From assembly GCA_022571885.1 (NCBI GenBank), contig JACZWZ010000001.1, forward strand, positions 156-64,155: a DNA stretch of 64,000 bases, written 5' to 3'. Position 1 is the stretch's first letter, and the number at the start of each line of letters is the position of its first letter. Position numbers and translations under genes: made by a program. Shown here one piece after another: positions 3,298-60,557 of the stretch. Under the pieces are notes generated by a model. That model ran no database searches and was not told where the DNA came from. It saw only the letters and a list, made by a program, of their open reading frames with translations. This DNA comes from Acidobacteriota bacterium (GTDB lineage Bacteria > Actinomycetota > Acidimicrobiia > Spongiisociales > UBA11373).

Positions 3298-4294
3298 GCG
3301 AAATCCACCTGTCCTTGCAGATCAGCAACCTTCCACAGCCCACCTTCGAACACCATCACCGCTGATTCCAGATCACGCTGCCCCTCACGTACCGATGGTT
3401 CGTCTGTCAATCGTTCCCCCGTGTCGAGGTCGTACAGGCCATAGTCCGGATCGGCTTCCATGCAGCTGAAAACAACTAGTTCGGTCGGACTGCGGACCTC
3501 TATCACCTCAGCGTGTGTCTCGGGCCGACCTCGCAGCGCCACCCGGCGAGCCTCGTGCTCTTCGAGGAGGCCAACAATGAATCCCTGCTGGGGCTCAGAC
3601 AGCACAGCGTCGACAAGCGGATGATCCGGATCAGGCGGGTCCCAGAAGGTTTCCCGAGCGTCGTAGTAGGCGTCGTAACCAGCGATGGCCGCCTCGGCCA
3701 TCTGCTCTGGCACGCAACCACCACCACTCGGGATGAACAGAGAGACCACCACCCAACCCTGCGCGCCGTTCGCCAGGTCCGCCTGGTACCAGACCCCGAC
3801 GGTGTCCGTGAACGAAAGCGACAGGAGGACGCAATCCTCGATGGTGGCCTTATCCGACCCAAGGTCTGTCACCCTGGCCGAAGTCACCACGTCGGTCTCC
3901 ACAGGTCCCAGCCCCGACTCACGTTGCCGCTCGAACAGCGCAACCACGCCTTCAACCACGTCGGGATCCGCCACTCGCTGCAACGGGGCGGGATCAAGAT
4001 CCTTTGAGGCCCGCACCGCGGACCACGCCGCCCAGAAGGCATTCCAAGCGGCGAGCAGATCCTCCTCCAACGGATCAGGTGCCGTGGTGGTAGCGGTGGC
4101 AGTAGCAGTAGTCGACGAGGTTGGTGAAGTAGATGTCGATGGCGGTGCGGCAGAAGTTGACGTCGCAAGCGAATCAGAGGTTGTGGTCGGAGCGGCAGCC
4201 GGCGAGGCATTGCTGCAGGCCGCAAACACCAGAAACGAGGCCAGGACAGGCGCAAGGAGACTACGTGAAGAAGTCGGGGCTCCGAGCTCCGGCA
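3255..4294 (-). CDS. hypothetical lipoprotein with Ser/Thr/Ala-rich linker; start uncertain (ORF extends to 4445)
   Basis: ...SRSLLAPVLASFLVFAAC lipobox-like signal followed by an S/T/A low-complexity tract and a globular C-terminal domain. GTG at 4294 gives a plausible signal peptide; the first ATG is at 4445. Confidence 0.45.
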
Positions 4295-4452
4295 CCGCTT
4301 GCTGAGGTGCGGTCACGGGCAAGCCCCAACATCCTGTAGCCGAACCAACCCTGAGTATCGAATCACCTGCGGAGGGCGTGGCAACACGCGCGTCACGCCC
4401 CCACGAGTCATCGTCAATACCAGGGAGCGTGTCATCGCTCAACACGCCACAA

Positions 4453-4724
4453 CCCTTTCAGCATGGTGTCTCAGCAAAGTCTCAGCAATCCTTTCAAGCA
4501 CCGGCAGCGACCGCTCACCTCTAGCTACCCAGGGCCTCGACGATGCAGCCATAGGCGCACGATGAACTGCCACCCTTTCAACAGAGTCTCAGCAACCCTT
4601 TCAAACACCCTTGCAGCGGGCCAGCTCAGTCCGGAACAAACACCAGACCCAGCGCCGCATTAGTCAACAATCTCAGAACTCCTGCGTCGGCGCCGGCAAC
4701 AGGATGAGATCGTGTTGAAAGGGT
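4453..4724. promoter_or_regulatory. cluster of short direct and inverted repeats (CCTTTCARMCA and GTCTCAGCAA motifs) upstream of xis; candidate Int/Xis arm-type sites or xis promoter
   Basis: Read directly: ccctttcagca (4453), gtctcagcaa x2, cctttcaagca (4490), ccctttcaaca (4572), gtctcagcaa, ccctttcaaaca (4596), inverted tgttgaaaggg (4713) about 20 nt before the xis ATG. Confidence 0.4.
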
Positions 4725-15451: not shown

Positions 15452-15456
15452 CTAGA

Positions 15457-15830
15457 GGAAGTCACCAGTCTCCAGTCTCCAGTCTCCAGTCTCCAGTCAG
15501 AATTCAGATTCGGAGGGAGGCCATCCTGCTGAGTGGCTGACCAAAGAACTCCAGTCCCCACTTGAGAAGTCCCCGGTTTCCGGTCCCCAGTCGCTAGTCA
15601 GAATTCAGATTCGGAGAGAGGCCCCTCCTGATGACTGGCGGCTTAGAGGCCGCGCGGATAGGCGGGATGCGACCGCCGGTGCCTCGTGAGCCCTTGTGGA
15701 ATATCGCCCTGCGTGTGAAACATCCGTCCATGTTTCACCCAACCGCTGAGTCTCTTAGTACTGAAGTCTTGCTGGAGACTGGAGACTGACGACTGACGAC
15801 TGACGACTGACGACTGACGACTCCTCTACG
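15457..15830. repeat. heptamer tandem arrays as inverted arms ((CAGTCTC)x4 ... (GGAGACT)x2(GACGACT)x5) bounding about 270 nt with two 28-nt direct repeats (gtcagaattcagattcggagRgaggcc) and a 9-bp perfect hairpin (gtgaaacat ccgtcc atgtttcac)
   Basis: Read directly in the convergent tadC / UPF0182 intergenic region. Confidence 0.7.
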
Positions 15831-18954: not shown

Positions 18955-19040
18955 TGCCGTCGAGTATCCAGTTCAGACTGGTTACTGGCTACTGGCTACT
19001 GGTTACTGGCTACTGGCTACTGGTTACTGGTTACTCTGCC
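18955..19040. repeat. (TACTGGY)x8 heptamer tandem array, preceded by two copies of gtcgagtatccRgt
   Basis: ggttactggctactggctactggttactggctactggctactggttactggttact read directly between the DivIVA-like stop and UPF0182 start. Confidence 0.8.
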
Positions 19041-21992: not shown

Positions 21993-22859
21993 ATGAGCCG
22001 TATAAGCCGCACACTCGAACTCGCCGGATCATCCTGGCGAGTCCTCAAAGCCGACAAGGAACTGGTGCTCCTTCCTCTTCTGTCACTGATCGCAACGGTT
22101 GCCGTGGCCGTTTCGTTCCTGTGGCCGATCGTCAGCAGCTGCACCGAAACCATCGGATCAAAGAACGCCTGTGAGCTCGGTGGCGTCGACTACGTGATCC
22201 TCGCAGTCGCCTATCTCACTCTCGCCTTCATCACGATCTTCTTCAATGCAGCCCTCGTCCACGCCGCCAATGAGCGAATGGATGGCGGAGATCCCACGGT
22301 CGGCAGCGCCATCAGGGGAGCGTTGGGCAAGATCCACCGAATCCTGCCGTGGGCGATCGTCTCGGCGACGGTTTCGGTGATCCTCCGCAGCCTCGAGCAG
22401 AGGGCCGGCCTGGTGGGACGTATCGTGATCGGGTTCATCGGGTTGGCCTGGTCGCTGGTCACCTTCCTCATCGTCCCGGTGCTGGTCATCGAAGACATCG
22501 GAGTATTCGACGCCGTAAAACGCTCGGGAGCGTTGTTCAAGCGCACCTGGGGAGAGAACATGGCAGCACAGGTCGGCTTCGGACTCCTCGGAATCCTGGC
22601 TGCATTGCCGGGAATCGCAATCATCGTTCTCGGCTTCAACGCAGGCGGACCGGCCGCCGTGACCGCGATCGCCATCGGAATGGCGTGGATTCTGGCGTCA
22701 CTTTTGGTGCTATCCGCTCTCAATGGGATCTTCCAAACGGCTCTCTACCGGCATGCCACCGGTGTGGGAACCGGGGCGTTCGATGGGAATTTGACGACGG
22801 CGTTTGCGACGAAGACGCGGCGCGGATTCGGATCGACCCCCCGAGGGTTCGGAGGATAG
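21993..22859 (+). CDS. hypothetical polytopic membrane protein
   Basis: Six or more hydrophobic segments; no catalytic motif recognised. Confidence 0.5.
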   Translation: MSRISRTLELAGSSWRVLKADKELVLLPLLSLIATVAVAVSFLWPIVSSCTETIGSKNACELGGVDYVILAVAYLTLAFITIFFNAALVHAANERMDGGDPTVGSAIRGALGKIHRILPWAIVSATVSVILRSLEQRAGLVGRIVIGFIGLAWSLVTFLIVPVLVIEDIGVFDAVKRSGALFKRTWGENMAAQVGFGLLGILAALPGIAIIVLGFNAGGPAAVTAIAIGMAWILASLLVLSALNGIFQTALYRHATGVGTGAFDGNLTTAFATKTRRGFGSTPRGFGG

Positions 22860-22860
22860 G

Positions 22861-22925
22861 GGTTAGGTGTTAGGGATTAGGCGTTAGGAAGAATTTCTAA
22901 GACCTAATACCCAATACCTAACGCC
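22861..22925. repeat. TTAGG-heptamer inverted-arm palindrome (ggttaggtgttagggattaggcgttagg aagaatttct aagacctaatacccaatacctaacgcc)
   Basis: Read directly between convergent genes (membrane protein + / bioY -). Confidence 0.8.
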
Positions 22926-23493
22926 TGCCTACCGCCTTCCAGGCGGTAGGCAATGCCACCCCGGCCAGAGCTACCTTGACCAGATCGCCGATGATGAACG
23001 GCACCATGCCGAGTTCCATCGCCTCGGTGGTCCCGACTCCCACGCTGTGCGCCAGCCAGGTCACTCCGAACAGATAGATCACCGCGGTCCCGGCCAGGAA
23101 CGCAGGTATGGCGGTGGCGATGCTGCGGTCCTGCTCCCGCTCGGCCAGGTAGCCGATCAAGGCGGCGGCGGCGATGAACCCCACCAGATAGCCGCCGGTG
23201 GCGCCGGTGACCACCTCCCAGCCGCCGTTGGCTCCCGAATAGAACGGCAGACCTATGGCACCGAGCCCGACGTAGAGAGCCTGGGAGGCGAAGCCGGCAC
23301 GCCAACCCAACGCGGCACCGGTGAGAAGTACCGCAAAGGTCTGGCCGGTGATCGGCACCGGCGTAAACCAGAGCGGGAACTCGATCTGGGCCATGAGGGC
23401 GGTGAAGAGCGCAAAACCTACAACAAGGACCGCAGTGACGTTGCGGGTCTGGGGCAGAACGCGGGAGCTGAGTACGGCGGGGGCGGTGGTCAT
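22918..23493 (-). CDS. bioY: biotin transporter BioY (ECF S-component)
   Basis: 191 aa, 5-6 TM, ...VPITGQTFAVLLTGAALGWRAG...GYLVGFIAAA typical BioY. Confidence 0.8.
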   Translation of the reverse strand: MTTAPAVLSSRVLPQTRNVTAVLVVGFALFTALMAQIEFPLWFTPVPITGQTFAVLLTGAALGWRAGFASQALYVGLGAIGLPFYSGANGGWEVVTGATGGYLVGFIAAAALIGYLAEREQDRSIATAIPAFLAGTAVIYLFGVTWLAHSVGVGTTEAMELGMVPFIIGDLVKVALAGVALPTAWKAVGRR

Positions 23494-34505: not shown

Positions 34506-34555
34506 CCATTTAGGTATTAGGTATTAGGCGTTAGGTATTAGGTATCTGGGCTTGG
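34505..34555. repeat. (TTAGGTA)x5 tandem array followed by a dispersed 30-nt motif (acccacggctcttcg...ctcatc) at 34577-34612
   Basis: ccatttaggtattaggtattaggcgttaggtattaggtatctggg read directly. Confidence 0.8.
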
Positions 34556-34734: not shown

Positions 34735-35964
34735 GTGGACATGATCACCGTGATCGCCCTTGCGGTCGCCGTCGTCTCGACCGGGCTCGCCCTTCTCTTC
34801 TTCAACAGGGCAAGAGGGCTGAGTCACGCTGTGGATGCCGCCCGACGACGCATCGGCGGCAACCCACCCAAGCGATCGTGGCACCGCGAGGCGGCTCTGG
34901 AGGAAGCGCTGCAGACGCTCGAACGCTCGACCTCCCATGCCCAAAGGGAGCGAGCGCAGCTGGCAGGAGCGCTACAAGCGGCTCGGCTCGGAATCATCAT
35001 CACCGACGACCACGGAATGGTGACCTTCGCCAATCAGCCCGCCGATCAGTACCTGGGGGCACAACAAGGCGAGGCCATCGCAGAAGCAAGGCTCAGGGAG
35101 GCCATCGAACAGGCGATTCTCAACCGAACCACGATCTCGACCGAGGTCGAATCAGGCGCGCCGATTGGACGCTCTGTCGAAATAGTGGTCGTGCCTCTCG
35201 ACTTCGGGGTGGAGAGCGTCGGTGCCGTCACCTACTTGGAGGACATCACCGAACGGCGTCGAATGAGTGAGACACGGCGCGATTTCATCGCCAACGTGGG
35301 TCACCAACTCACCACGCCGCTGTCTGCTCTGGCGGCGCTGTGCGAGACGGTTGCCGACAGTCTTGACGACGCTGAAGTGGCACGACGGCTGGCGTCCCGC
35401 CTCGGACAGGAATCAACTCGCCTGGGTGCAATGGTGGACAGCATCCTCCAGTTGAGCCAGGCCGAAGCCCAGAAGGCACGAACCCAAGCTGTTCAGGCCT
35501 CAGAGCTGACAGAATCTGCAGCCGACGAGATGGGCCGAGCCGTCACCGAACGCGGGGCTGAACTCATCGTGGAAGCGGCACCGCCCGGCGTCTGCATCGC
35601 CGGGGATGAACGACAGCTTCGCTCATTGCTTGTCGGTCTCATCGACAACGCCGCCAAGTTCTCGAACTTGCCAGAGGGAAGTCCGCCGTCCCGTATCTGG
35701 CTTCGGACCTCGGTCCAGGGCGAGTCGGTGGTCTTCACCGTGCAAGATGAGGGAATCGGAATAGCCAAGGATCAAACCGATCGCATCTTCGAGCGGTTCT
35801 ATCGGGTCGATCGTTCCGAGCCCGGCACCGGACTCGGCCTCAGCATCGCGCGCCACATAGCCCGCGACCACGGCGGTGACGTAACCGTGATCAGCAAGCC
35901 GCAGGAGGGATCGATCTTTACCGTGACACTGCCGCTGTGGCGGGAGGAAGGGGTTAGGCGTTAG
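34735..35964 (+). CDS. sensor histidine kinase (TM - PAS-like - HisKA - HATPase), no adjacent response regulator
   Basis: FIANVGHQLTTPLSAL H-box; NLPEGSPPSRIWL...QDEGIGI...GTGLGLSIARHIARDHGGDV N/G boxes. Confidence 0.8.
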   Translation: MDMITVIALAVAVVSTGLALLFFNRARGLSHAVDAARRRIGGNPPKRSWHREAALEEALQTLERSTSHAQRERAQLAGALQAARLGIIITDDHGMVTFANQPADQYLGAQQGEAIAEARLREAIEQAILNRTTISTEVESGAPIGRSVEIVVVPLDFGVESVGAVTYLEDITERRRMSETRRDFIANVGHQLTTPLSALAALCETVADSLDDAEVARRLASRLGQESTRLGAMVDSILQLSQAEAQKARTQAVQASELTESAADEMGRAVTERGAELIVEAAPPGVCIAGDERQLRSLLVGLIDNAAKFSNLPEGSPPSRIWLRTSVQGESVVFTVQDEGIGIAKDQTDRIFERFYRVDRSEPGTGLGLSIARHIARDHGGDVTVISKPQEGSIFTVTLPLWREEGVRR

Positions 35965-36020
35965 GCGTTAGGAAGACTCTGCCTAGTACCTAATCCCTAA
36001 TGCCTAATTCCTTCCTACCT
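35945..36020. repeat. TTAGG inverted-arm palindrome (gggttaggcgttaggcgttagg aagactctg cctagtacctaatccctaatgcctaattcc)
   Basis: Read directly between convergent genes; overlaps the last codons of the kinase. Confidence 0.8.
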
Positions 36021-38818: not shown

Positions 38819-38856
38819 TGTACGAGAGAGCGATTCGGTGGGTTACTGGCCGTGGG

Positions 38857-38886
38857 CAATTCACAATTCGCAATTCGCAATTCGAC
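38857..38886. repeat. (CAATTCG/CAATTCA)x4 heptamer array
   Basis: caattcacaattcgcaattcgcaattcgac read directly. Confidence 0.8.
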
Positions 38887-38915: not shown

Positions 38916-39108
38916 CCGGCGCCGAGCCCTACGAAACCCTCCGCGCAGCAGCAATCTGACGCTCCTTACGCACCCGGCGCTGCACCCACGGCTCTTCGGC
39001 TAACACCTCATCACAATGTCGGCCGGGTCCCTACCCAGCCGACCGGCGCCGAGCCCTACGAAACCTTCCGCGCAGCAGCAATCTGACGCTCCTTACGCAC
39101 CCGGCGCC
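38916..39108. repeat. 65-nt direct duplication of the whiB 3' terminus (38916-38980 and 39043-39108, 1 mismatch), 62 nt apart
   Basis: ccggcgccgagccctacgaaaccYtccgcgcagcagcaatctgacgctccttacgcacccggcgc occurs twice; the upstream copy overlaps the real whiB C-terminus and stop. The spacer contains the dispersed motif acccacggctcttcggctaacacctcatcac also seen at 34577. Confidence 0.75.
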
Positions 39109-39337
39109 TTTCGCGTTCGGACATCCCGCCCCAGATGCCGAACTTCTCGCCGGTCGTGATTGCGAATTCCAGGCATTCCACCCGAACCTGACACTCGCGA
39201 CAGATCCCCTTGGCCGTCCTCGTCGAGGCGCCGCGCTCGGGGAAAAAGAGATTGGCATTGGCCCCCGTGCAGTTCGCCTTGTCCTGCCACTCGAGGTCGT
39301 AGCCGGTGGCTAAAGCTTGCTTGAGTTGCTCGAGCAT
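39056..39337 (-). CDS. whiB: WhiB-family transcriptional regulator (WhiB1-like)
   Basis: 93 aa; CTGANANLFFPERG...CRECQVRVECLEFA...GIWGG four-Cys WhiB signature and C-terminal basic tail. Confidence 0.85.
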   Translation of the reverse strand: MLEQLKQALATGYDLEWQDKANCTGANANLFFPERGASTRTAKGICRECQVRVECLEFAITTGEKFGIWGGMSERERRRVRKERQIAAARKVS

Positions 39338-39375: not shown

Positions 39376-39600
39376 TATGCGCGCGGAGCGCGCGTGCGTC
39401 AAATGCTTTTCGCATAACAGCTCACTACCGCGCGCGGCCTTATGAGTGGCAGGAGGGAACCTTGACAGTGCGCGCGGAGCGCGCGCACTGTTAGTCCTTA
39501 GCCTTTAGTCGTTAGTCCTTAGGAAAGAAAAGACGAAGACAGGAGACAGCCGACAGCCCCGCCTCTGACCTAATGACTAAGGACTAATGACTAACGCCTC
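39376..39600. promoter_or_regulatory. whiB upstream region with GC-rich palindromes (gcgcgcg gag cgcgcg at 39379; perfect cagtgcgcgcg gag cgcgcgcactg at 39466-39490) and TTAGTCC inverted-arm repeats (39491-39600)
   Basis: Read directly; between the whiB start and sdhB stop. Confidence 0.45.
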
Positions 39601-43059: not shown

Positions 43060-43286
43060 TCAGCATTCTCGCGCGTTGCAGAGCACAGAGCGAAGGCCGT
43101 AAGACCCATGAATTCGTTTCCCGTTCCTGACCTGATTTCGTCACACCTGATGCGACGCGCCGGCCGCCATCCGGACGAGCCTTCGTCGAGTCCCCCGATT
43201 CCCGAATGCATCCCGACCATCCGCAGAATTCGGGAAAGGGGAAACGGGAAACGAATTCAGCCCAATCAGCGAATACTCTTCCCCAG

Positions 43287-44165
43287 ATGCGTTCCCTCCC
43301 CCCTGTCATGCCGGCTCTGATCACTCCGTTCACCCGTACCGGTGAACTCGACCTCGAGGCACACCGCCACAACGTCGCACGAATGTGGGATCTCGGGTTG
43401 CGAGGACACCTCATCGCAGGCAGCACCGGGGAAGGCCCCTACCTCGAATCCGGAGAGCGGCGCATCCTCATCGCCGCGGCTCGCGAGGTCTCTCCGCGGT
43501 CCTTCCTCCTGTGCGGGATTCACGCTGAAACGGTTCGCTCTGCGATCGCGGCGATGCACGAGGCCGGTGAAGGCGGCGCCGATGCGGCCCTTGTGGTGAC
43601 CCCGACGACGCTCGTTCGCCACCGGCCCGACCTGATCGAGGCATTCTTCGTCGAGGTCACCGAGGCGGCACAGTTGCCGGTGCTCCTCTACTCGGTGCCG
43701 AAGGTGACTGGTGTCGAACTCGCCGAGTCGAGCGTCGCCTCACTCTCGTCGCATCCACGCATCGTGGGGATGAAGGATTCGGGAGGTGATCCGATCCGTT
43801 CATCCCGCCTGGTGAGAGCAATACCAGACCGTTTCAAATTGTACGTAGGTGCCACCCCCGCCATCAGTCTGTCGATCGCCGGCGGAGCTCACGGCGCCAT
43901 AACCGCCAGCACCAACTACGCCCCGCGGCTGGTTGGCGACACAGTGATCGCAGCGCGTCGATCGTTGCGCGCGGCCGAAACTCTCCAATCCAGGCTTTCG
44001 GTACTGTCGATCGCAATCGAGGGTCACGGCATCCCGGGCGTCAAGTACGCCGCCGGTCGTGCCGGCTTGGCGGCGGGCCACAGCCGCGCTCCCCTCGACT
44101 CACCTTCGCCTGAAGTGAAGCGCTTCGTCCGTCGTGTCATGGCGACGGCGGAGTTGGGGGATTAG
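43287..44165 (+). CDS. dihydrodipicolinate synthase/N-acetylneuraminate lyase family protein (DapA-like)
   Basis: LITPFTRTGELDLEAHRHNV...GSTGEGPYLESGER...GMKDSGGD (Schiff-base Lys region). Start at 43287 or 43308 preferred over 43206. Confidence 0.65.
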   Translation: MRSLPPVMPALITPFTRTGELDLEAHRHNVARMWDLGLRGHLIAGSTGEGPYLESGERRILIAAAREVSPRSFLLCGIHAETVRSAIAAMHEAGEGGADAALVVTPTTLVRHRPDLIEAFFVEVTEAAQLPVLLYSVPKVTGVELAESSVASLSSHPRIVGMKDSGGDPIRSSRLVRAIPDRFKLYVGATPAISLSIAGGAHGAITASTNYAPRLVGDTVIAARRSLRAAETLQSRLSVLSIAIEGHGIPGVKYAAGRAGLAAGHSRAPLDSPSPEVKRFVRRVMATAELGD

Positions 44166-44650
44166 GGATTAGCAATACGCCAGTGCGTAGGCAGGTCCCG
44201 GAGTCGGAGGACCCCCCTCCAACGACCTACGGTCGTTGACTCCCCCTCAAGGGTGTCGGGTTGCGCGATAGGGCCGACGGTTCTGTTCTGAATACTCTCC
44301 CCTTTGGGGGGAGTCAGCGAGCGAAGCGAGCTGGTGGGGGGTACCTGGTCTTCGTCTCCGTCAGGCCAACACGTCTTGTATGTCGTAGTGGCCTTTCACC
44401 GGGTGGTTGCGCCAGGTTGGGTAGCCACTCGATCATGCGTCTTGTGGGTCAGTTCGCCGAGTCGGTGTGTGGTCAGATAGGCAGCGGGATTGCCGCGACT
44501 TGGTGAGTCCCCCCACCAATCGGCCTGCGGCCGATTGACTCCCCCCAGAGGGGAGAGTGATCCAACCAACCGTCGGGCACTAACCGCGACAGATCACCCT
44601 CAAGGGGGGAGTGGTTCCCTATTGCTAATCGCTAATTGCTAATTGCGGGA
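44155..44650. mobile_element. copy A of a repeated structured element of about 500 bp (MITE-like): outer GATTAG/GCAAT arms, 14-bp TIR-like ends (ccccctcaagggtg ... caccctcaaggggg, core 44242-44608), internal GC hairpins
   Basis: Aligns by eye at roughly 90-95% identity with 56745-57290; no conserved ORF between the copies. Confidence 0.7.
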
Positions 44651-44695
44651 GGCGGCGCAGCCGCCGACCTCTTGCGAACAAAGAGGTAGTCTCGG

Positions 44696-45106
44696 ATGAG
44701 AGACGAGAAAGGAAAGGTCTTGGCCCAGTTCCTCACCCAGGATTGGCTGTCGGCGCTCACCGAGGCGGTGAACGCCCACGACGGCTTCAAGAACGCGATC
44801 GCCGAAATCGACCTCACCCTCCAGTTCGAGGTCACAGATGCACCGGAGGCGTCGGAGACCCGCTATTACGTCGCCATAAGCGATGGCTCAGCCGAGGCGG
44901 GAGCCGGTGACGCCGAAGATCCGGATGCCTCGATCACCAACGACTACGAGACGGCCACCGCCATCAGCAAGGGCGACCTCAACACGCAGATGGCGTTCAT
45001 GACCGGCAAGCTCAAGGTCACCGGCAACATGGCAAAGCTCATGATGAATCAGGCGGTGCTCACACAGTTCGCCGAGGCAGCCTCCAGCATCGACGTCGAA
45101 TACTGA
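44696..45106 (+). CDS. SCP2 sterol-carrier-like domain protein
   Basis: 136 aa; LTQDWLSAL...GDLNTQMAFMTGKLKVTGNMAKLMMNQAVL is the SCP2 C-terminal signature. Confidence 0.6.
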   Translation: MRDEKGKVLAQFLTQDWLSALTEAVNAHDGFKNAIAEIDLTLQFEVTDAPEASETRYYVAISDGSAEAGAGDAEDPDASITNDYETATAISKGDLNTQMAFMTGKLKVTGNMAKLMMNQAVLTQFAEAASSIDVEY

Positions 45107-47659: not shown

Positions 47660-47725
47660 GCACCCAGTACCCAGTACCTCGGAGGCTCCTTCTACTGGTT
47701 ACTGGCTACTGGCTACTGGCTACCC
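47660..47725. repeat. (CCAGTAC)x2 ... (TACTGGY)x5 heptamer array, same family as 18955-19040
   Basis: cagtacccagtacc...ctactggttactggctactggctactggctaccc read directly between the mdh start and icd stop. Confidence 0.8.
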
Positions 47726-52204: not shown

Positions 52205-52310
52205 AGGGGTCAAGAGATCGTTTCCCGTTCCCAGTTCCCCGTTTCCCGAATCTCGGCGCGACCTGATTCGGGAAACGGGACACGGGAAGCGGGAAACGAT
52301 CAGTTGGCCG
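52205..52310. repeat. GTTTCCC/GGGAAAC heptamer inverted-arm palindrome with spacer
   Basis: tttcccgttcccagttccccgtttcccgaatctcggcgcgacctgattcgggaaacgggacacgggaagcgggaaac read directly; related GGGAAAC repeats at 43228-43260. Confidence 0.75.
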
Positions 52311-52338: not shown

Positions 52339-54534
52339 TCACGCTCTCTCCAGCGGAGCCCAGGCGAGGAGCAGCCGCTTCTCACCCTGTCCCTCGAAAG
52401 AGACGGTCGCCTCGGCCCGATCTCCGCTGCCGATGACCGCCACCACCACACCGAGACCCCAATGCTGGTGTCGAACCCTGTCGCCAACAGCCACGCTCGA
52501 TCCGTCGAGGGTGGGACGCGGTTTGACCGCCTCGCGCTCGGGCACCCGTTGGCGTTTTTCTGCTTCCTTCAGCAGGCCGTCCGGGATCTCACCGAGGAAG
52601 CGGCTCGGCGAGTTGTAGTTGGTCGCCCCAAACAGATTCCGGGTGGTGGCATGGGTGAGATACAGCTGTTGCTGCGCTCGCGTGATCCCCACATACGCCA
52701 GTCGACGCTCCTCTTCGAGTTGCTCGGGGTCGCCCAACGACCTCATGTGAGGAAAGACGCCTTCCTCCATCCCGGCGATGAAGATCACCGGATACTCGAG
52801 GCCCTTGGCGTTGTGAAGCGTCATCAGCGTCACCGCACCGGTTTCCTCCATCCCATCGACGTCCGAGACCAGCGATGTCGCCTCGAGGAAGAGCTCGAGG
52901 CGGCGACTCCCGCTGAGTTCCTCCCACCTCTCGTCGCCGAGATCTGTCATCGGTCCGTTCTCTTCGAATTCGGCTGCGACCGACAGCAGCTCCTTGAGGT
53001 TCTCGGCCCGGCTGAGGGCCTCCAAACCACCGTCGGCCTCGAACTCGGCAAGGTATCCGGTGTCATCGAGCACCGACTGAAGCGCGGCGCGGGGTCCGGC
53101 AGCAGCCGCAACCCGCAGCACACCCAGCAACGCCACGAATTCAGCGATCTGCTTCGCCGCCCGGGCGGAGAGGCGAGTGTTTTCGCCGGCCCGTTCCAGA
53201 GCCTCGAAGTAGGTGATGCCCTTCGCCTCGGCGAACCGATCGACATGACCGATGCTGGTGGCTCCGATTCCGCGCTTCGGCACATTGACTATCCGCTTCA
53301 TCGCTACCTCATCCGACGGGTTGACCAACGCCCGCAAATACGCCATGACGTCCTTGACCTCGCGCCGGTCGTAGAACTTGGGACCGCCGATCACCTGATA
53401 CGGGATGGCGTATCTGACGAGAACCTCTTCGAGAACCCGGCTCTGAGCATGGGTGCGGTAGAAGACGGCGGCATCGGACAGGCGCCGGCCGACATCCTCG
53501 AGAGCTCCGAGACGTTCGGCGATGAAGGCGGCCTCGTCATGTTCGTCCTCGGCCTGATACACGGTGACCGGTTCACCGGTGCCGAGGTCGGTCCAGAGAT
53601 GCTTCGGGGTCCGCCCCCGGTTGTTTGCAATCACGGCATTGGCAGCGTCCAGGATCGTCTGAGTCGATCGGTAGTTACGGTCGAGCACGACCACTCGGGC
53701 ATCTCGATAGTCCTTTTCGAACTCGAGGATGTTGCGCACATCGGCGCCACGGAACGAATAGATGCTCTGGTCGGAATCGCCGACGACGCACAGGTTGCGA
53801 TGTTTGGCCGCCAATAGTTGCACCAACCGATATTGGGCATGGTTGGTGTCCTGGTATTCGTCCACCAGTACATACCGGAATCGGTCCTGATACTCATCGA
53901 GGACTGGGGGGAACGCTCCCAGCAACTCAACGGTCACCATCAACAGATCGTCGAAATCCATGGCCGACGCCTCCAGCAGCCGCTGCTGGTAGAGCCGATA
54001 GACATCGGCAACCTTCTCGTGATAGAACCCACTCCCCTGTTGGGCGAACGACTCGTAGTCGATCAGCTCGTTCTTGGCGTTACTGATTGCCGCTCGTATC
54101 CCCTTGGGGGGGAACCGCTTCGGATCGAGGTCGAGATCCCGAACGCAGTATTGGACGAGACGACGGGCGTCGATGTCGTCGTATATGGAAAACGCGTTGC
54201 GATAACCAAGCATCGAAGCGTGCCGACGGAGAATCCGCACGCAAGCGCTGTGGAATGTCGAGACCCACATCCCGCGGGAAACCGCGCCCACTAGTAGGCC
54301 GACGCGCTCTTTCATCTCGTTGGCGGCCTTGTTGGTGAAAGTGATGGCCAGGATGCTGTACGGAGAGACTCCCAGCTCGCGAATGAGGTAGGCGATCCGA
54401 TAGGTGAGCACCCTGGTCTTGCCTGAACCTGCCCCGGCCACGACGAGCAACGGGCCTTCCGTCGCCGCAACCGCCTCGCGTTGCGAGGGGTTGAGTTCGT
54501 CGAATAGAGGGGATTCGGTCACCAGACGATCCAT
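52339..54534 (-). CDS. pcrA: ATP-dependent DNA helicase PcrA/UvrD
   Basis: LNPSQREAV...LLVVAGAGSGKTRVLTYRIAYLI (motifs I/Ia), TFHS, VDEYQDTN, C-terminal Tudor-like tail. Confidence 0.9.
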   Translation of the reverse strand: MDRLVTESPLFDELNPSQREAVAATEGPLLVVAGAGSGKTRVLTYRIAYLIRELGVSPYSILAITFTNKAANEMKERVGLLVGAVSRGMWVSTFHSACVRILRRHASMLGYRNAFSIYDDIDARRLVQYCVRDLDLDPKRFPPKGIRAAISNAKNELIDYESFAQQGSGFYHEKVADVYRLYQQRLLEASAMDFDDLLMVTVELLGAFPPVLDEYQDRFRYVLVDEYQDTNHAQYRLVQLLAAKHRNLCVVGDSDQSIYSFRGADVRNILEFEKDYRDARVVVLDRNYRSTQTILDAANAVIANNRGRTPKHLWTDLGTGEPVTVYQAEDEHDEAAFIAERLGALEDVGRRLSDAAVFYRTHAQSRVLEEVLVRYAIPYQVIGGPKFYDRREVKDVMAYLRALVNPSDEVAMKRIVNVPKRGIGATSIGHVDRFAEAKGITYFEALERAGENTRLSARAAKQIAEFVALLGVLRVAAAAGPRAALQSVLDDTGYLAEFEADGGLEALSRAENLKELLSVAAEFEENGPMTDLGDERWEELSGSRRLELFLEATSLVSDVDGMEETGAVTLMTLHNAKGLEYPVIFIAGMEEGVFPHMRSLGDPEQLEEERRLAYVGITRAQQQLYLTHATTRNLFGATNYNSPSRFLGEIPDGLLKEAEKRQRVPEREAVKPRPTLDGSSVAVGDRVRHQHWGLGVVVAVIGSGDRAEATVSFEGQGEKRLLLAWAPLERA

Positions 54535-54589: not shown

Positions 54590-54665
54590 GGGAGTTAGGG
54601 CTAGGAGTTAGGAACCAGGAAGAGACCGTCTACCTAATACCTAATGCCTAATACCTAACTCCTAC
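54590..54665. repeat. TTAGG inverted-arm palindrome (gggagttagggctaggagttagg ... cctaatacctaatgcctaatacctaactcc)
   Basis: Read directly between the pcrA start and the cheA-like stop. Confidence 0.8.
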
Positions 54666-56713
54666 TCGATCAGCTCTCGGAGTAGCGTCGCGAGTGCACC
54701 TTCGCGGACATCGTCCTTGTCGAGGTATGCGTTGGCTCCTGCTGCCAGGGCCTTCTCCTGATCCTCGACGGTGGCGGCCCCGGACAGGACCACGATCGGA
54801 GCAGTGATCCCGAGATCACGGACTCGAGCGACAAGGGTCGCGCCGTCCATAGTCGGGAGGACGTAGTCGACGACGATCGCATCGAATTCCTGCTCGGCCA
54901 GCACCGACAGCGCCTCGGTCGGACTGCCTGCCAGGTCGACCTCGAAGCCTGCCGAACCAAGAGCACCCCCGACCACCTGTCGGGCTCCGCGTGAGTCGTC
55001 CACAATGAACACTCGTCGACGCGGGGCGTCGGGATCAGGCACCTTCCGAGTCCGCTCGGCAAGCTTGGCCGCATCCACCAGCACGACGATGTCCCCTCCA
55101 CCCAGCAGCGCGGCTCCTGTGAGGTGAGGCACTCCGTCGAGCACAGGTCCGAGTTCACGGGCTGCGACCTGCCTCCGGCCGAGATCTTCCTCCACCGAGA
55201 ACCCGACCGGTCCCACCGGGCTGGACACGACCAGAACGCTTGTTGGCTGGCCGAGGGCACGCAAACCGACGGTCTCGGCGAACGACGTCACCGGTATTGT
55301 GGTCCCGTTCCAGAACATCTCGGTACGGCTCGGAGTCTCGACGAATTCGGCACCGTCGATCGGTACCCGATCGATCACCGCGATCTCAGGGATCCCCCAC
55401 ATCTGCCCGGCGGCGCGGATGATTACCGCGTCCTGGAGAGCGTGGCTGGTGGGCACCGTGATCGTTAGACGGGTTCCGGACCCGGACTCGCTCTTGAGCA
55501 CCAACGTCCCATGAAGTGCTTCCACAGCCTCGGCGACTGTGGCGAGGCCCGTACCGTCGCCGACCAGCTCACCCGGCTGCGCGGTCGAGAAATGGGGTGA
55601 GAACAGCACCCCCCGCAACGCATCCAGGTCCCCCGAATCAGGCTCATCGAGCAGTCCTTGCTGCGTCGCCATCTCTCGCACAGCCCCCCAATCGATCCCA
55701 GAGCCATCGTCTTCGACAGATATGGTCAGTCGATGGTCCACCACGTCGAAGCCGACCGCCAGTGTTGCCGTCGGCGGCTTCCCGAGCGCCTCGCGTTCTG
55801 CCGGCAGTTCGACTCCGTGATTGATGGCGTTGACGAGTAGATGCCGCAGCGGATCGCTGAGCCGTTCGATTACCTGGCGATCGACCCGATGATGATCCCC
55901 GATAATCTCGAACCGAACGTCCTTGCCGGCCTTTCGTGCCAAGTACCTGACGAATTGGGGGTAGGTGCTGGTGATGTCGCTCAACGGAGCGGCAGCTAGG
56001 TCGACGGCCCGATCCTGCACATCGACCACGGCCTTCTCAGCCGTGGCGATGAGGTCGGTGAGAGTGGTCATCGACACCGCCAACTCCGCCCTATCGTCAA
56101 TCGAATCCTCCACCTGTTCAACCGCGCCGTAAAGCGCTTCGGCGTCGACTCGAAGCGAGCAAATCTCGTTGATGAGCCTGAAGAGAGCAGCAGCGTTCAC
56201 CCGGATGGTCTCGCCGAAACCTTCGGAGTCGAGTGTTCCGAGCAGACCGCCGAGATCGCTCGGCTCGGATACTGTTTTGGTCGGCGGTTGGTCAAGCGGA
56301 ATCGCATCGCCTCGCATCGCCTGACGTACCGCCCTCATACCTTCAGCCAGCGCGGGAGTGCCGGTAGCCGGATCGGCAGCTAGGGCAGGCAGTAGTTCAA
56401 GACTGAGCGCTTCGAGTGCATCGGCGAGCGCCTGATCCGGATTCTGCTCTCCGTCGCGCAACTCCCTCCAGGCGTCTTCGAGCAGCTTGCCGGCATCGGA
56501 TACGGCCGAGAAGCCCATCATTCGAGCGGTGCCCTTGATGGTGTGCCCTTCGCGGCACATGTCCTGAAGCAGTCCATCTGCGAAGTCGCCGGTAGCAAGA
56601 GCGCGGGCTCCGTTGGCAAGCAGGCCCGACCGCTCTTCCACTTCACCGCCGAACAGGCGCTCCAGCTCAAGATCTCCAGAAAGCTTCAAAGGCAACCCCT
56701 CGTAACCAGACAC
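54662..56713 (-). CDS. CheA-like hybrid histidine kinase (HPt - dimerisation - HATPase - CheW-like - C-terminal receiver), orphan
   Basis: HTIKGTARMMGF HPt; HATPase G-boxes (DDGSGID, GSGTRL); CheW-like block; C-terminal REC (FIVDDS...DAIVVDYVLPTMDG...K). No MCP/cheW/cheB/cheR in the window. Confidence 0.75.
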   Translation of the reverse strand: MSGYEGLPLKLSGDLELERLFGGEVEERSGLLANGARALATGDFADGLLQDMCREGHTIKGTARMMGFSAVSDAGKLLEDAWRELRDGEQNPDQALADALEALSLELLPALAADPATGTPALAEGMRAVRQAMRGDAIPLDQPPTKTVSEPSDLGGLLGTLDSEGFGETIRVNAAALFRLINEICSLRVDAEALYGAVEQVEDSIDDRAELAVSMTTLTDLIATAEKAVVDVQDRAVDLAAAPLSDITSTYPQFVRYLARKAGKDVRFEIIGDHHRVDRQVIERLSDPLRHLLVNAINHGVELPAEREALGKPPTATLAVGFDVVDHRLTISVEDDGSGIDWGAVREMATQQGLLDEPDSGDLDALRGVLFSPHFSTAQPGELVGDGTGLATVAEAVEALHGTLVLKSESGSGTRLTITVPTSHALQDAVIIRAAGQMWGIPEIAVIDRVPIDGAEFVETPSRTEMFWNGTTIPVTSFAETVGLRALGQPTSVLVVSSPVGPVGFSVEEDLGRRQVAARELGPVLDGVPHLTGAALLGGGDIVVLVDAAKLAERTRKVPDPDAPRRRVFIVDDSRGARQVVGGALGSAGFEVDLAGSPTEALSVLAEQEFDAIVVDYVLPTMDGATLVARVRDLGITAPIVVLSGAATVEDQEKALAAGANAYLDKDDVREGALATLLRELIE

Positions 56714-56744
56714 ATCAGAGGTATCGACGGAAGAGCGATCGGTC

Positions 56745-57290
56745 GTTAGCGATAAGTGGTAGCAATACGCAATGCGCCCAGCAGGCCACTTGCAGGCAAC
56801 GACCGCGTTGGAGTTCTCGGAGTCGGAGGGGCCCCTCCAATCGAGCTCCGCTCGATTGACTCCCCCTCGAGGGTGTCGGGTTGCGCGATAGGGCCGACGG
56901 TTCTGTTCTGAACACTCTCCCCTTTGGGGGGAGTCAGCGAGCGAAGCGAGCTGGTGGGGGGTACCCGGTCTTCGTCTCCGTCAGGCCAACACGTCGTGTA
57001 TGTCGTAATGGCCTTTCACCGGGTGGTCGCGCCAGGTTTGTGTAGCCACTCGAACATCCGTCTTGTGGGTCAGCTCGCCGAGCCGGTGTGCGTCCAATAG
57101 GCAGCGGGATTGCCGCGACTTGGTGAGTCCCCCCACCAATCGGCCTGCGGCCGATTGACTCCCCCCAGAGGGGAGAGTGATCCAACCAACCGTCGGGCAC
57201 CAACCGCGACAGATCACCCTCGAGGGGGGAGTGGTTCCTTATTGCTACTCGCTAATCGCCAATCGCGGAAGGCGCCGACGCATCTCTGAC
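56745..57290. mobile_element. copy B of the repeated structured element of about 500 bp (perfect 14-bp TIRs ccccctcgagggtg 56862-56875 / caccctcgaggggg 57215-57228), followed by (GGACTAA)x4 heptamers
   Basis: Same order of blocks as copy A; stem-loops differ by compensatory changes (A: aacgacc tac ggtcgtt; B: aatcgagc tcc gctcgatt). Confidence 0.7.
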
Positions 57291-57336
57291 CTGAGGACTA
57301 AGGACTAACGACTAAGGACTAACAACTGGCGAAGCC

Positions 57337-58881
57337 TCACTCCCACTCGATGGTGGCGGGCGGCTTCGAAGAGATGTCGTAGGCGACCCGGTTGATCCCT
57401 TCGACCTCGTTGATTATCCGTGACGAGATTCTCTCCAACAGATCGTGGGGCAACCGAGCCCAATCGGCCGTCATCGCGTCTTCGCTGGTGACGGCACGCA
57501 CGATGAGCGGGTAGGCGTAGGTGCGAATATCGCCCTGGACCCCGACCGTCTTGATTGCCGGCAGCACTCCGAATGCCTGCCAGATCTCCCGGTACAACCC
57601 GGCCCGCCGGATCTCTTCGAGGATGATGGTATCGGCGCGCCGTAGAATCTCGAGTCGCTCCCGAGTCACCTCTCCGATGATCCTCACAGCCAGACCGGGA
57701 CCTGGGAAGGGCTGCCGCCACACGATGTCGGGAGGCAGGCCGAGCTCCTCACCTATCGCACGTACCTCGTCCTTGAACAGATCGCGCAGCGGCTCCACCA
57801 GCTCGAAATCCATATCGTCGGGCAGTCCGCCGACGTTGTGATGACTCTTGATCTTGGCTGCATCCTTGGTCCCGGACTCGATGATGTCGGGATAGAGCGT
57901 CCCCTGCACCAAGTACTTGGCATCGTCGACATCGGCCGCGACATCCTCGAACACTCTGATAAAGGTTTCGCCGATGATCTTGCGCTTCTCCTCGGGGTCG
58001 GTCACACCCGTCAACGCGCTGAGAAACCGATCGGCGGCGCGGACGTGGATCAGGTCGATATCGAGCGTGGCACGAAAGGCCGCTTCCACCTGGTCTGCCT
58101 CACCCTGGCGCAGCAGGCCATGATCCACGAACACGCAGGTGAGCCTGTCTCCGATCGCTCGGTGAACCAGTGCCGCGGCAACGGCGGAATCGACGCCACC
58201 CGAGAGACCACAAATCACCCGACCCGCCGGGGCTGCCTCACGGATCCAACTCACCGCCTGCTCGATTATCCCGACGTGGGTCCACGTCGGTTTGGCCCCG
58301 CACACTTCATAGAGGAACCGTTGCAGCACCTCCTGGCCTCGCGGGGTGTGAGCCACCTCCGGGTGGAACTGCACGCCGCACATTTTGCGCTCGAGATCCT
58401 CCATCGCTGCCACCGGTGAAACCGCAGTCGATGCCGTCACCGTGAAACCCGGCGGAGCCTTCACGACCGCGTCGCGGTGGCTCATCCAGACCTCTTGATG
58501 ACCGGGCAGCTCGGCGAACAACACCGACTCGGGCGCGATCTCCAACTCGGTCCTTCCATACTCGGCTACCTCGACCCGCGCCACGTCACCGCCGAGGGCG
58601 CTCGCCAACACCTGATGGCCGTAACAGATGCCGAGAATCGGAACCCCCAAATCCAGGATCGCCGGATCGATCTCATAGGCGTCTTCGGCATACACCGATG
58701 CCGGGCCACCAGACAGGATGATCCCGACCGGCGACGCCGATCTCACCTGATCGGCCGTGACATCACGGGGCACGATCACCGAGTACACATGCGCCTGACG
58801 AACCCTGCGAGCGATCAGTTGGGCGTATTGCGCCCCGAAGTCGACGACGAGAACCCTGTCGAAGCCCTCGTCCATCGGCAT
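57337..58881 (-). CDS. guaA: GMP synthase (glutamine-hydrolysing)
   Basis: GATase (ILGICYGHQ), ATP-PPase SGGVDS motif, C-terminal dimerisation domain; 514 aa. Confidence 0.9.
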
Positions 58882-60038: not shown

Positions 60039-60100
60039 TTTTGTCCCGTGTGTGTGGTCGTGGGGAGAGTAGCCAGGCGAAGGATGGTGGTCGGGGAACA

Positions 60101-60551
60101 GGAGTTAGGTATTAGGAATTAGGCGTTAGGTGCCGGACCGCCAATGCTTGATCAGTGAACGCAACATCCTCTTGACCTCACCGATGTAACCAAGTGTGAC
60201 GTCGATCGGATCCTTGGTGTGACCCAGTCGGGCGGCAAGATCCAGCTGATATTCCAACTCGCTCGCCGATCCAGCCGCGATCGAAAGCAGCCGAGCAGCA
60301 TCCGGATCCGTGCTGCGTCCGGCCGCTTCTGCGATATTCGAAGCTACAGACACGGCAGCTCTCCTCATTTGAGCGACCAGCCCGAACCGTTCGTCAACGG
60401 GAAACTCGCCGGTGATCCGATAGATATCTAGGACCACCTCATCGGCCCGCTGCCACACCGTCAGTGACCGATAGTCGCGCATGACTCAACCGGTACACCG
60501 AAAGTCCAAGCGAAACAAGCCCCCTGCTAGTCCTACCTAATCCCTAATCCC
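60101..60551. mobile_element. TTAGG inverted-repeat cassette (left ggagttaggtattaggaattaggcgttagg; right ctagtcctacctaatccctaatccct) enclosing the four-helix-bundle gene
   Basis: Read directly; the cargo gene's TAA stop (60126-60128, minus strand) lies inside the left TTAGG unit; the right arm abuts the trpS stop. Confidence 0.6.
60126..60482 (-). CDS. four-helix-bundle protein (TIGR02436 / 23S rRNA intervening-sequence protein family, Avd-like fold)
   Basis: MRDYRSLTVWQRADEVVLDIYRITGEFPVDERFGLVAQMRRAAVSVASNIAEAAGR...ASELEYQLDLAARLGH matches the family consensus (KVWQKA...LxxQLRRAAxSIxxNIAEG...GSxxElEyhL). Confidence 0.85.
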   Translation of the reverse strand: MRDYRSLTVWQRADEVVLDIYRITGEFPVDERFGLVAQMRRAAVSVASNIAEAAGRSTDPDAARLLSIAAGSASELEYQLDLAARLGHTKDPIDVTLGYIGEVKRMLRSLIKHWRSGT

Positions 60552-60557
60552 TGAAGC

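Follow-up and report, generated by a model that had tools for sequence, protein, structure and literature searches.

Two copies of a strongly folded intergenic sequence are present in 64 kb of contig sequence from an uncultured member of the Acidimicrobiia (the whole 64-kb stretch that was analysed is termed the window), and the question that this locus raises is whether the sequence acts as an RNA or is a piece of mobile DNA. One copy (copy B) lies between guaA and a gene for a CheA-like hybrid histidine kinase, the other (copy A) between a DHDPS gene and a gene for an SCP2-domain protein. The initial annotation assigned positions 56745–57290 to copy B and argued, from the orientation of the two copies, for a DNA-level mobile element and against a cis-acting leader RNA. 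The “structured element” in the guaA-cheA spacer is very probably a 343-bp non-coding transposable element of the miniature inverted-repeat type (MITE) that has the ends of an IS481-type insertion sequence (IS) and is inserted in a repeated palindromic hairpin, i.e. it is mobile DNA and not a regulatory RNA. The support for mobile DNA is much stronger than orientation alone: the termini are common to the element and an autonomous IS, the target sites are duplicated, an empty site is found in a related organism, the orientation relative to genes is mixed, and neither an Rfam family nor covariation was detected. Loci that were fetched for comparison are given L numbers.

Ends of the element and its parent insertion sequence

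A BLAST search of the window with positions 56701–57340 as the query shows only one further copy, at 44185–44657 on the same strand. The similarity between the copies (44185–44657 versus 56805–57277) amounts to 92% identity over 476 nt by BLAST and by alignment. As initially stated, both copies have one absolute orientation, copy A being sense to the DHDPS and SCP2 genes and copy B antisense to the cheA-like gene and guaA. The two-copy repeat seen within the positions first assigned is real, but the mobile unit is narrower. It encompasses positions 56874–57216, and the remainder consists of an older target unit and heptamer arrays (Table 1).

Short-read contigs that reach either copy all end inside the copy, as is expected of a dispersed repeat in an assembly. 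Look-ups with DHDPS and SCP2 gave only contigs that end within copy A, which supports its repetitive nature, and no empty site for copy A was found among these contigs. An exact look-up with the CheA-like protein returned no record. A WhiB gene is located in the vicinity, and exact or near-exact contigs of the window region are present in several marine metagenome assemblies. The core of the element is present in metagenome-assembled genomes (MAGs) of Acidimicrobiia, and the named GuaA homologues are annotated as Acidimicrobiia.

A 23-mer from the left arm of the element, scanned over species-representative genomes, matched two contigs that belong to a single Acidimicrobiia MAG, and a 21-mer from the same left end, scanned over metagenomes, led to 21 more loci. 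In both MAG contigs the left-arm sequence forms the left end of an insertion sequence. Past the 29-bp left end, the loci either run on as IS or are short non-coding elements that end in the IS right end. The IS in L013 (1143 bp) begins with TGTCGGGTTGCGCGATAGGGCCGACGGTT, followed by an open reading frame (ORF) of 341 amino acids on the opposite strand and then by AACCGTCGGGCACAAACCGCGAGAGATCA. L014, L029 and L030 are also complete IS copies (1126–1144 bp), and these continue with TTCATGGGG... after the 29-bp left end. In L010 and L016 the copies are truncated to the left terminal repeat (IRL) and a portion of the transposase ORF, and L031, outside the ORF scan, holds a comparable partial copy. 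The four complete copies are 70%–86% identical overall, yet the left-end core is identical in every IS copy retrieved, in part because the scans demanded an exact match to the core.

The transposase ORF displays the Pfam domains HTH_32, HTH_28, LZ_Tnp_IS481, rve and rve_3, and a D...D-35-E triad can be read in its translation (FDCF; STDRGNEF; NGKVEQ). The top NCBIfam model is IS481 (NF033577, 176 bits, E = 1e-51), with IS3 second at 77 bits. In the ISfinder description, members of the IS481 family have a length of about 1–1.3 kb, TGT ends and a duplication of 4–15 bp; IS481 itself duplicates NCTAGN. The parent IS, with its 1126–1144 bp, ends TGTCGG...GATCA and duplications of about 4–10 bp, is similar to the family in its length of about 1.1 kb, its one ORF with helix-turn-helix, leucine zipper and DD(35)E core, its TGT termini, its short variable duplications and its palindromic targets. 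It differs in having left and right ends that are only partly complementary, a longer hairpin as target, and a transposase score of 176 bits versus the curated IS481 cut-off of 224. With a score under this cut-off it is to be termed IS481-type or IS481-like and not a certified member. The parent element is IS481-like, in that architecture, length, ends and duplications fit and the curated threshold is not reached.

IS481-like ends are found on a series of sizes: 73 bp (L019), 98–99 bp (L015, L017), 135 bp (L021), about 340 bp (window copies A and B, L020, L025) and 495 bp (L032). L011 is a near-complete long copy with a degenerate and undetected right end, hence no length can be given. The MITE has only the 29-bp ends in common with the IS, and no similarity to the IS was found between them. 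Its interior is made up of two units (U2 and U3) resembling repetitive extragenic palindromic (REP) sequences, which are inverted around a 165-nt spacer; in the 98-bp versions a single hairpin is found there. The longest ORFs of the two copies disagree in strand and place (56934–57203, minus strand, in copy B and 44261–44506, plus strand, in copy A), and the copies differ by frame-breaking 1-nt indels. A tblastn comparison of IS481-type and IS110 transposases with the window gave no match in the 64 kb. The element is therefore not a decayed transposase gene.

The hairpin target and the empty site

On both sides of each window copy there is a 10-bp direct repeat, CCCTCGAGGG for copy B and CCCTCAAGGG for copy A. 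The copy A repeat is not palindromic; therefore it does not belong to an inverted repeat and represents a genuine target duplication. Shorter or imperfect duplications are present at L014, L017, L020, L029 and L032.

A search for GuaA homologues yielded L035 and L036, from a related organism whose GuaA is 92% identical and in which the guaA-cheA-uvrD order is kept. The guaA-cheA spacer is 219 nt long in L035/L036 versus 623 nt in the window. The alignment shows an intact hairpin in the relative, CACTCCCTC-CTTGA-GGGGGAGTC, exactly at the point where copy B is inserted. The wider sequence of this hairpin is ...GATTAGCGATTAGCGATTAGCAAGAGAGAATCACTCCCTC-CTTGA-GGGGGAGTCAATCG..., and its two halves are parted by the MITE in the window. 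Two further loci with a GuaA of 84%–87% identity, L037 and L038, are uninformative: in L038 another gene follows guaA, and in L037 no gene is called, guaA being about 0.5 kb from the contig end.

The element is short and non-coding, has its ends in common with an autonomous IS, is flanked by a target-site duplication and shows presence/absence polymorphism with an empty site. Judged by these sequence properties it appears to work like, and to qualify as, a bacterial MITE, and would be ordinary mobile DNA. Bacterial DDE-derived MITEs such as MITEAba12 (PMC6382973; review PMC3184786) are likewise short and non-coding, share terminal inverted repeats with an IS, duplicate the target site, have many intergenic copies in either orientation and are polymorphic for presence and absence. 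Unlike those, the element described here has an IS481-type parent from uncultured marine Acidimicrobiia, REP-like palindromes in its interior and a strong bias to one kind of hairpin. A full-text literature search on MITEs together with Acidimicrobiia found no paper.

The REP-like units are GC-rich imperfect intergenic palindromes with the layout CCCC(A/T)CC, small hairpin, then GACTCCCCC-loop-GGGGGGAGTGGTTCC. More than 25 instances are present in the fetched loci, some of them alone and uninterrupted, e.g. in L019 and L034. The outer 50 nt or so on each side of the MITE display 72%–86% identity between copies A and B versus 95.3% for the MITE body, and the MITE occurs within the outer unit in both orientations (the window and L025 versus L003, L024 and L026). 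As the outer unit is free of the MITE at the empty site, is found alone elsewhere, is less similar than the body and holds the MITE in both orientations, it is the target and not cargo. Twenty-two of the 27 independent left junctions fit the pattern C4+/loop/G, versus 0.9% of random positions. The C-run/loop/G-run hairpin is a strong insertion target. Where a full-length IS copy is inserted, the hairpin is surrounded by quite different sequence.

The small hairpin of the outer unit (56832–56859 versus 44212–44238) has the stems TCGAGC/GCTCGA in copy B and CGACC/GGTCG in copy A, with the pairing kept. Shape seems to be better conserved than sequence in the REP-like family.

Several other arrangements were observed at these hairpins. 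Two or three left/right ends are stacked about 50–55 nt apart in L022 (1695–2391), L028 (2171–2254) and L012 (2030–2100); each stacked end is preceded by the MITE’s own internal hairpin half, thus these are MITEs nested inside MITEs. Genes for IS110-family (RNA-guided) transposases are located in the same kind of hairpin at L026 (557–1588, minus strand) and L028 (871–1902, plus strand), and a third IS, beginning TGTACGGACC, is also inserted in a C-run/loop/G-run hairpin in L016 (about 1340–1390). The presence of unrelated ISs makes this hairpin a shared landing site for unrelated transposases. On the L025 contig the whole unit is present a second time in reverse (4290–4700), with a right-end-like sequence at both termini instead of the usual single left end and single right end. 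In L003, which is from a different sample and a closely related strain (guaA region 98.5% identical, k = 141 assembly), the same guaA-side hairpin is filled in the opposite orientation (L003 2740–2805 versus window 57216–57260), and the junction loop is AGAG versus TCGA. The simplest reading of L003 is an independent insertion into a hot spot, with inversion as the alternative.

Table 1. Positions in the window of the MITE copies, their parts, the target unit, the heptamer arrays and the neighbouring genes.
Feature	Position	Strand	Remarks
MITE copy B (probable), 343 bp, TG...CA, non-coding	56874–57216	+	Limits from IRL/IRR common with full-length IS and from 10-bp flanking duplication
MITE copy A (probable), 343 bp	44254–44596	+	95.3% identical to copy B; duplication CCCTCAAGGG at 44244–44253 and 44597–44606
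Left terminal repeat (IRL) TGTCGGGTTGCGCGATAGGGCCGACGGTT	56874–56902	+	29/29 identical to left end of 1.14-kb IS of L013 and to L010, L014, L016, L030, L031
Right terminal repeat (IRR) AACCGTCGGGCACCAACCGCGACAGATCA	57188–57216	+	27/29 identical to IRR of IS copies of L013 and L030
Left target-site duplication, copy B, CCCTCGAGGG	56864–56873	.	Identical to 57217–57226
Right target-site duplication, copy B, CCCTCGAGGG	57217–57226	.	Copy A counterpart CCCTCAAGGG shows direct repeats
Inner REP-like unit U2, inverted: hairpin CACTCTCCCC-TTTG-GGGGGAGT, second small hairpin, then GGTGGGGGG	56910–56961	-	Inverted repeat with 57126–57182
Central MITE spacer, about 165 nt	56962–57125	.	No recognisable function; 82%–90% identity to copy B in 5 copies at other loci
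Inner REP-like unit U3	57126–57182	+	Also alone and uninterrupted in L019 and L034
Left half of split target, REP-like unit U1: CGGAGTCGGAGGGG / CCCCTCC / hairpin AATCGAGC-TCC-GCTCGATT / GACTCCCCC-TCGA-GGG	56818–56873	+	Uninterrupted at L035/L036; A versus B 72%–81%, small-hairpin stems differ
Right half of split target hairpin GGGAGTGGTTCC	57227–57238	+	Continuous with left half at empty site
GCTAATC-type heptamer array beside target unit	57240–57268	.	TRF 57244–57266; GATTAGC on guaA sense strand
(GGACTAA)n array	57294–57327	-	TTAGTCC on guaA sense strand; starts about 10 nt after guaA stop; absent in L035/L036, shorter in L003
Gene-end heptamer arrays, first part	15460–15499, 15783–15823, 18977–19035, 22845–22937, 34510–34545, 35949–36012		Period-7 scan
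Gene-end heptamer arrays, second part	39491–39594, 47693–47724, 54631–54664, 57294–57327, 60100–60130, 60536–60552		Period-7 scan
DHDPS gene	43206–44165	+	Left of copy A
SCP2-domain protein gene	44696–45106	+	Right of copy A
CheA-like hybrid histidine kinase gene	54662–56713	-	Pfam Hpt, HATPase_c, CheW, Response_reg; start 160 nt from MITE
guaA (GMP synthase)	57337–58881	-	Pfam GATase, GMP_synt_C; stop codon 120 nt from MITE

In the proposed mechanism, the MITE would have retained just the 29-bp ends of a 1.13–1.14 kb IS481-type IS of related marine Acidimicrobiia, with an unrelated, palindrome-rich interior. Both ends would be bound by the DD(35)E transposase of the IS, acting in trans, which would insert the MITE with a preference for the position directly 3′ of the loop in a C-run/loop/G-run hairpin of a REP-like intergenic unit, and the target would be duplicated by about 4–10 bp on insertion. 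From the analogy to IS3/IS481-type DDE enzymes, a copy-out, paste-in route is probable. The window copies would then have arisen by two separate insertions, each into a different member of the REP-like family, and the heptamer arrays and the outer palindromic unit would be the landing site and not carried along with the MITE. In this scheme the orientation of a copy to its neighbouring genes is a matter of chance at insertion, which accounts for copy A being sense and copy B antisense.

Several observations weigh against the interpretation as an IS481-type MITE. Duplications are lacking or imperfect at L013, L015, L025a and L030, and therefore later recombination or mutation must be invoked for these loci. 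The target is palindromic, so that a part of what is termed target can be read as an extended terminal repeat. The transposase is below the curated IS481 cut-off, as given above, and no transposase gene is present in the 64-kb window. Mobilisation in trans and the chemistry of transposition are features that we infer, in part from analogy. It should be noted that the C-run/G-run flanks were considered as an extended terminal repeat of the IS, as suggested by L013; this was rejected, given that the loop differs at every insertion, that the copy A duplication is non-palindromic and that the empty site is intact.

Structured RNA and other explanations

A structured non-coding RNA, or a leader with cis-regulatory action, in which the fold itself is the function, has next to no likelihood as an explanation and is largely refuted. 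The folding energy of the region is far below that of shuffles, and the plus strand (-303 kcal/mol, z = -10.7) is 26 kcal/mol better folded than the minus strand (-277 kcal/mol, z = -7.7); in addition, the central 165 nt are kept at 82%–90% identity in five copies from other loci. These properties are in favor of an RNA, but the strong predicted fold is explained by the nested inverted repeats, terminal and REP-like. A scan of the whole window against Rfam at the gathering threshold passes only a tRNA elsewhere, and at E ≤ 10 the region matches just spurious long-hairpin miRNA models, generic long hairpins of which the best has 27.7 bits versus a threshold of 268. RNAalifold, applied to eight interior copies (with power limited by their identity of about 88%), shows a compensatory change in 1 of 91 predicted pairs, many broken pairs, and an unfavourable covariation term of +2.83. 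The orientation statistics proposed initially were obtained for the non-autonomous copies whose left end is no more than 500 nt from a gene: 11 share the strand of the adjoining gene and 5 are opposite to it (two-sided binomial p ~0.2). The neighbours are unrelated and belong to no single gene class (DUF4446, nuclease, 6-phosphogluconolactonase, aldehyde dehydrogenase, ROK kinase, ketoacyl synthase, BioY, SpoU methylase, glycerol-3-phosphate dehydrogenase and a chorismate mutase fusion). The initial annotation had named a consistent sense orientation before one gene class as evidence that would speak for a leader; none was found, therefore the DNA-level reading stands. Furthermore, the orthologous spacer of the relative is without the element. 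The insertion amounts to 353 bp of strongly pairing sequence between guaA and cheA, and a scan of 56600–57450 gave no promoter-like or terminator-like site.

Three other explanations take the sequence to be DNA but differ from an IS481-type MITE in the unit, the enzyme or the role. An invertible switch, flipping between the split hairpin halves with orientation as a regulated state, is extremely unlikely. The hairpin arms do bracket the element as inverted sequence, and IRL faces guaA in L003, whereas IRR faces guaA in the window and in L001. The opposite orientation is however seen only in another strain and sample and with another junction, and a simple flip would not give the different junction loops (AGAG in L003, TCGA in the window). 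There is also no recombinase gene among the neighbouring genes and no promoter-like site within the element, and with the hairpin a demonstrated insertion hot spot, independent insertion is simpler. It is very unlikely, too, that the whole 470–545 nt block, including the outer palindromic unit and the heptamer arrays, is the mobile or duplicated unit. Such a block would fit the similarity between copies A and B that runs past the TG...CA element (56805–57277), the same outer unit around the MITE in L025 (both copies), L027 and L033, and the absence of a free outer unit from the window. It does not fit the orthologous empty site, where the outer unit and the GATTAGC array are uninterrupted, nor the units that stand alone in L019 and L034, the lower identity of the flanks (72%–86% versus 95% for the body), the MITE in either orientation within the outer unit, and the quite different surroundings of the full-length IS hairpins. 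The remaining explanation, that the element or at least its interior is of the REPIN type and is moved by a REP-associated tyrosine transposase (RAYT) and not by an IS481-type enzyme, is unlikely. The interior has the REPIN layout, i.e. two inverted REP-like palindromes around a spacer (PMC3116915). Interior units also occur singly elsewhere, and one L025 copy has IRR-like sequence at both ends. On the other hand, the outer limits and the duplications of both window copies coincide with IS481-type ends. Tyrosine (HUH) transposases (IS200/IS605, RAYTs) are not known to make a target duplication, which counts against their involvement here, and no RAYT gene was seen at any locus, though no systematic RAYT search was made.

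Gene-end heptamer arrays and the landing site

The initial annotation also reported four GGACTAA heptamers after copy B, and took these as linking the copy to a family of heptamer repeats. The heptamers exist: a period-7 array of 4.1 copies (GGACTAA GGACTAA CGACTAA GGACTAA) is present at 57294–57322. The proposed link did not hold. Period-7 arrays within 60 nt downstream of the stop codon follow 13 of 55 genes, mostly without a MITE (upstream regions 4 of 55; coding windows 0.1%), and the GGACTAA array is absent from the empty-site relative. The array is therefore a guaA gene-end feature near which the MITE happens to sit, and the link to the family is positional only. The second array, which adjoins the target unit, is represented by three GATTAGC copies at the empty site in L035/L036; thus it predates the insertion.

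The heptamer varies between arrays, but on the sense strand of the upstream gene it reads YYAGKNN (TTAGGNN, TTAGTCN, CCAGTAN, CCAGTCT, TCAGTCG). Because of this common sense-strand reading, arrays at convergent gene pairs form long inverted pairs. Many heptamer units include a stop codon, and the period of 7 carries the stop through all three frames.

Other repeats were seen in the window. A 373-nt spacer of convergent genes (15452–15825) is bounded by 40-nt inverted heptamer arrays and holds a 56-nt direct repeat (15467–15522 and 15568–15623, 86% identical); a further small repeat element may be present here. A 65-nt direct repeat (38916–38980 and 39043–39107, 98% identical, 127 nt apart) has one copy in the spacer downstream of a WhiB-like gene (39056–39337, minus strand) and the other overlapping the 3′ end of that gene, and it adjoins a GCAATTC heptamer array (38856–38884). 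Just downstream of the uvrD-like gene (52339–54534, minus strand), there is a near-perfect hairpin (52208–52309) with 45-nt arms of CGTTCCC/CGGGAAA heptamers.

The nearest published case found for the arrays is that of the TAACTGA intergenic direct repeats of Beggiatoaceae, Cyanobacteria and Bacteroidetes, where one heptamer is located just before start codons (MacGregor 2015, PMC4679880). Both are tandem intergenic heptamers with few copies per array and ACTGA/ACTAA-like cores. In contrast to the TAACTGA repeats, the window arrays vary in heptamer, sit just after stop codons, often form inverted pairs and have an actinobacterial host. The palindromic units resemble REP/BIME/REPIN sequences (PMC3116915, PMC3333891) in being GC-rich imperfect intergenic palindromes, often in inverted pairs and with stem changes that preserve pairing, but are longer, with two hairpins and C/G runs.

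Insertion into such units is known from IS1397 and ISKpn1 (IS3 family) and from IS621 and ISPpu9 (IS110 family) (PMC1525189, PMC12288879), which are similarly inserted in the hairpins of repeated extragenic palindromes, with intergenic copies and similar flanks. Here, by contrast, it is mostly a MITE that occupies the hairpins, and IS110-family elements are found in these hairpins as well (L026, L028). The survey of Tobes and Pareja (2006) lists IS3, IS110, IS4, IS256 and IS5 as REP-targeting families, and IS481 is not among them (PMC1525189). The targeting of REP-like hairpins by an IS481-type element shown here thus concerns a family that is missing from the published list.

With the identity of the “structured element” settled, it need not be pursued as a riboswitch-like RNA, and the breaks in short-read assemblies of this lineage at these spots are explained. 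A documented pair of MITE and parent IS is added for the uncultured marine Acidimicrobiia. The landing site is the more interesting lead: several IS families are drawn to its gene-end heptamer arrays and REP-like hairpins. As a tentative and rather doubtful proposal, the gene ends of these marine Acidimicrobiia might carry heptamer arrays as orientation-specific marks (YYAGK NN on the mRNA strand), with REP-like hairpins enclosed by the arrays, and these hairpins would offer a safe landing pad in common to at least three unrelated transposases (IS481-type, RNA-guided IS110-type and that of the third IS). Arrays and hairpins might then represent an undescribed system of 3′-end punctuation, in termination, mRNA stability or protein binding, that would also channel mobile DNA away from genes.

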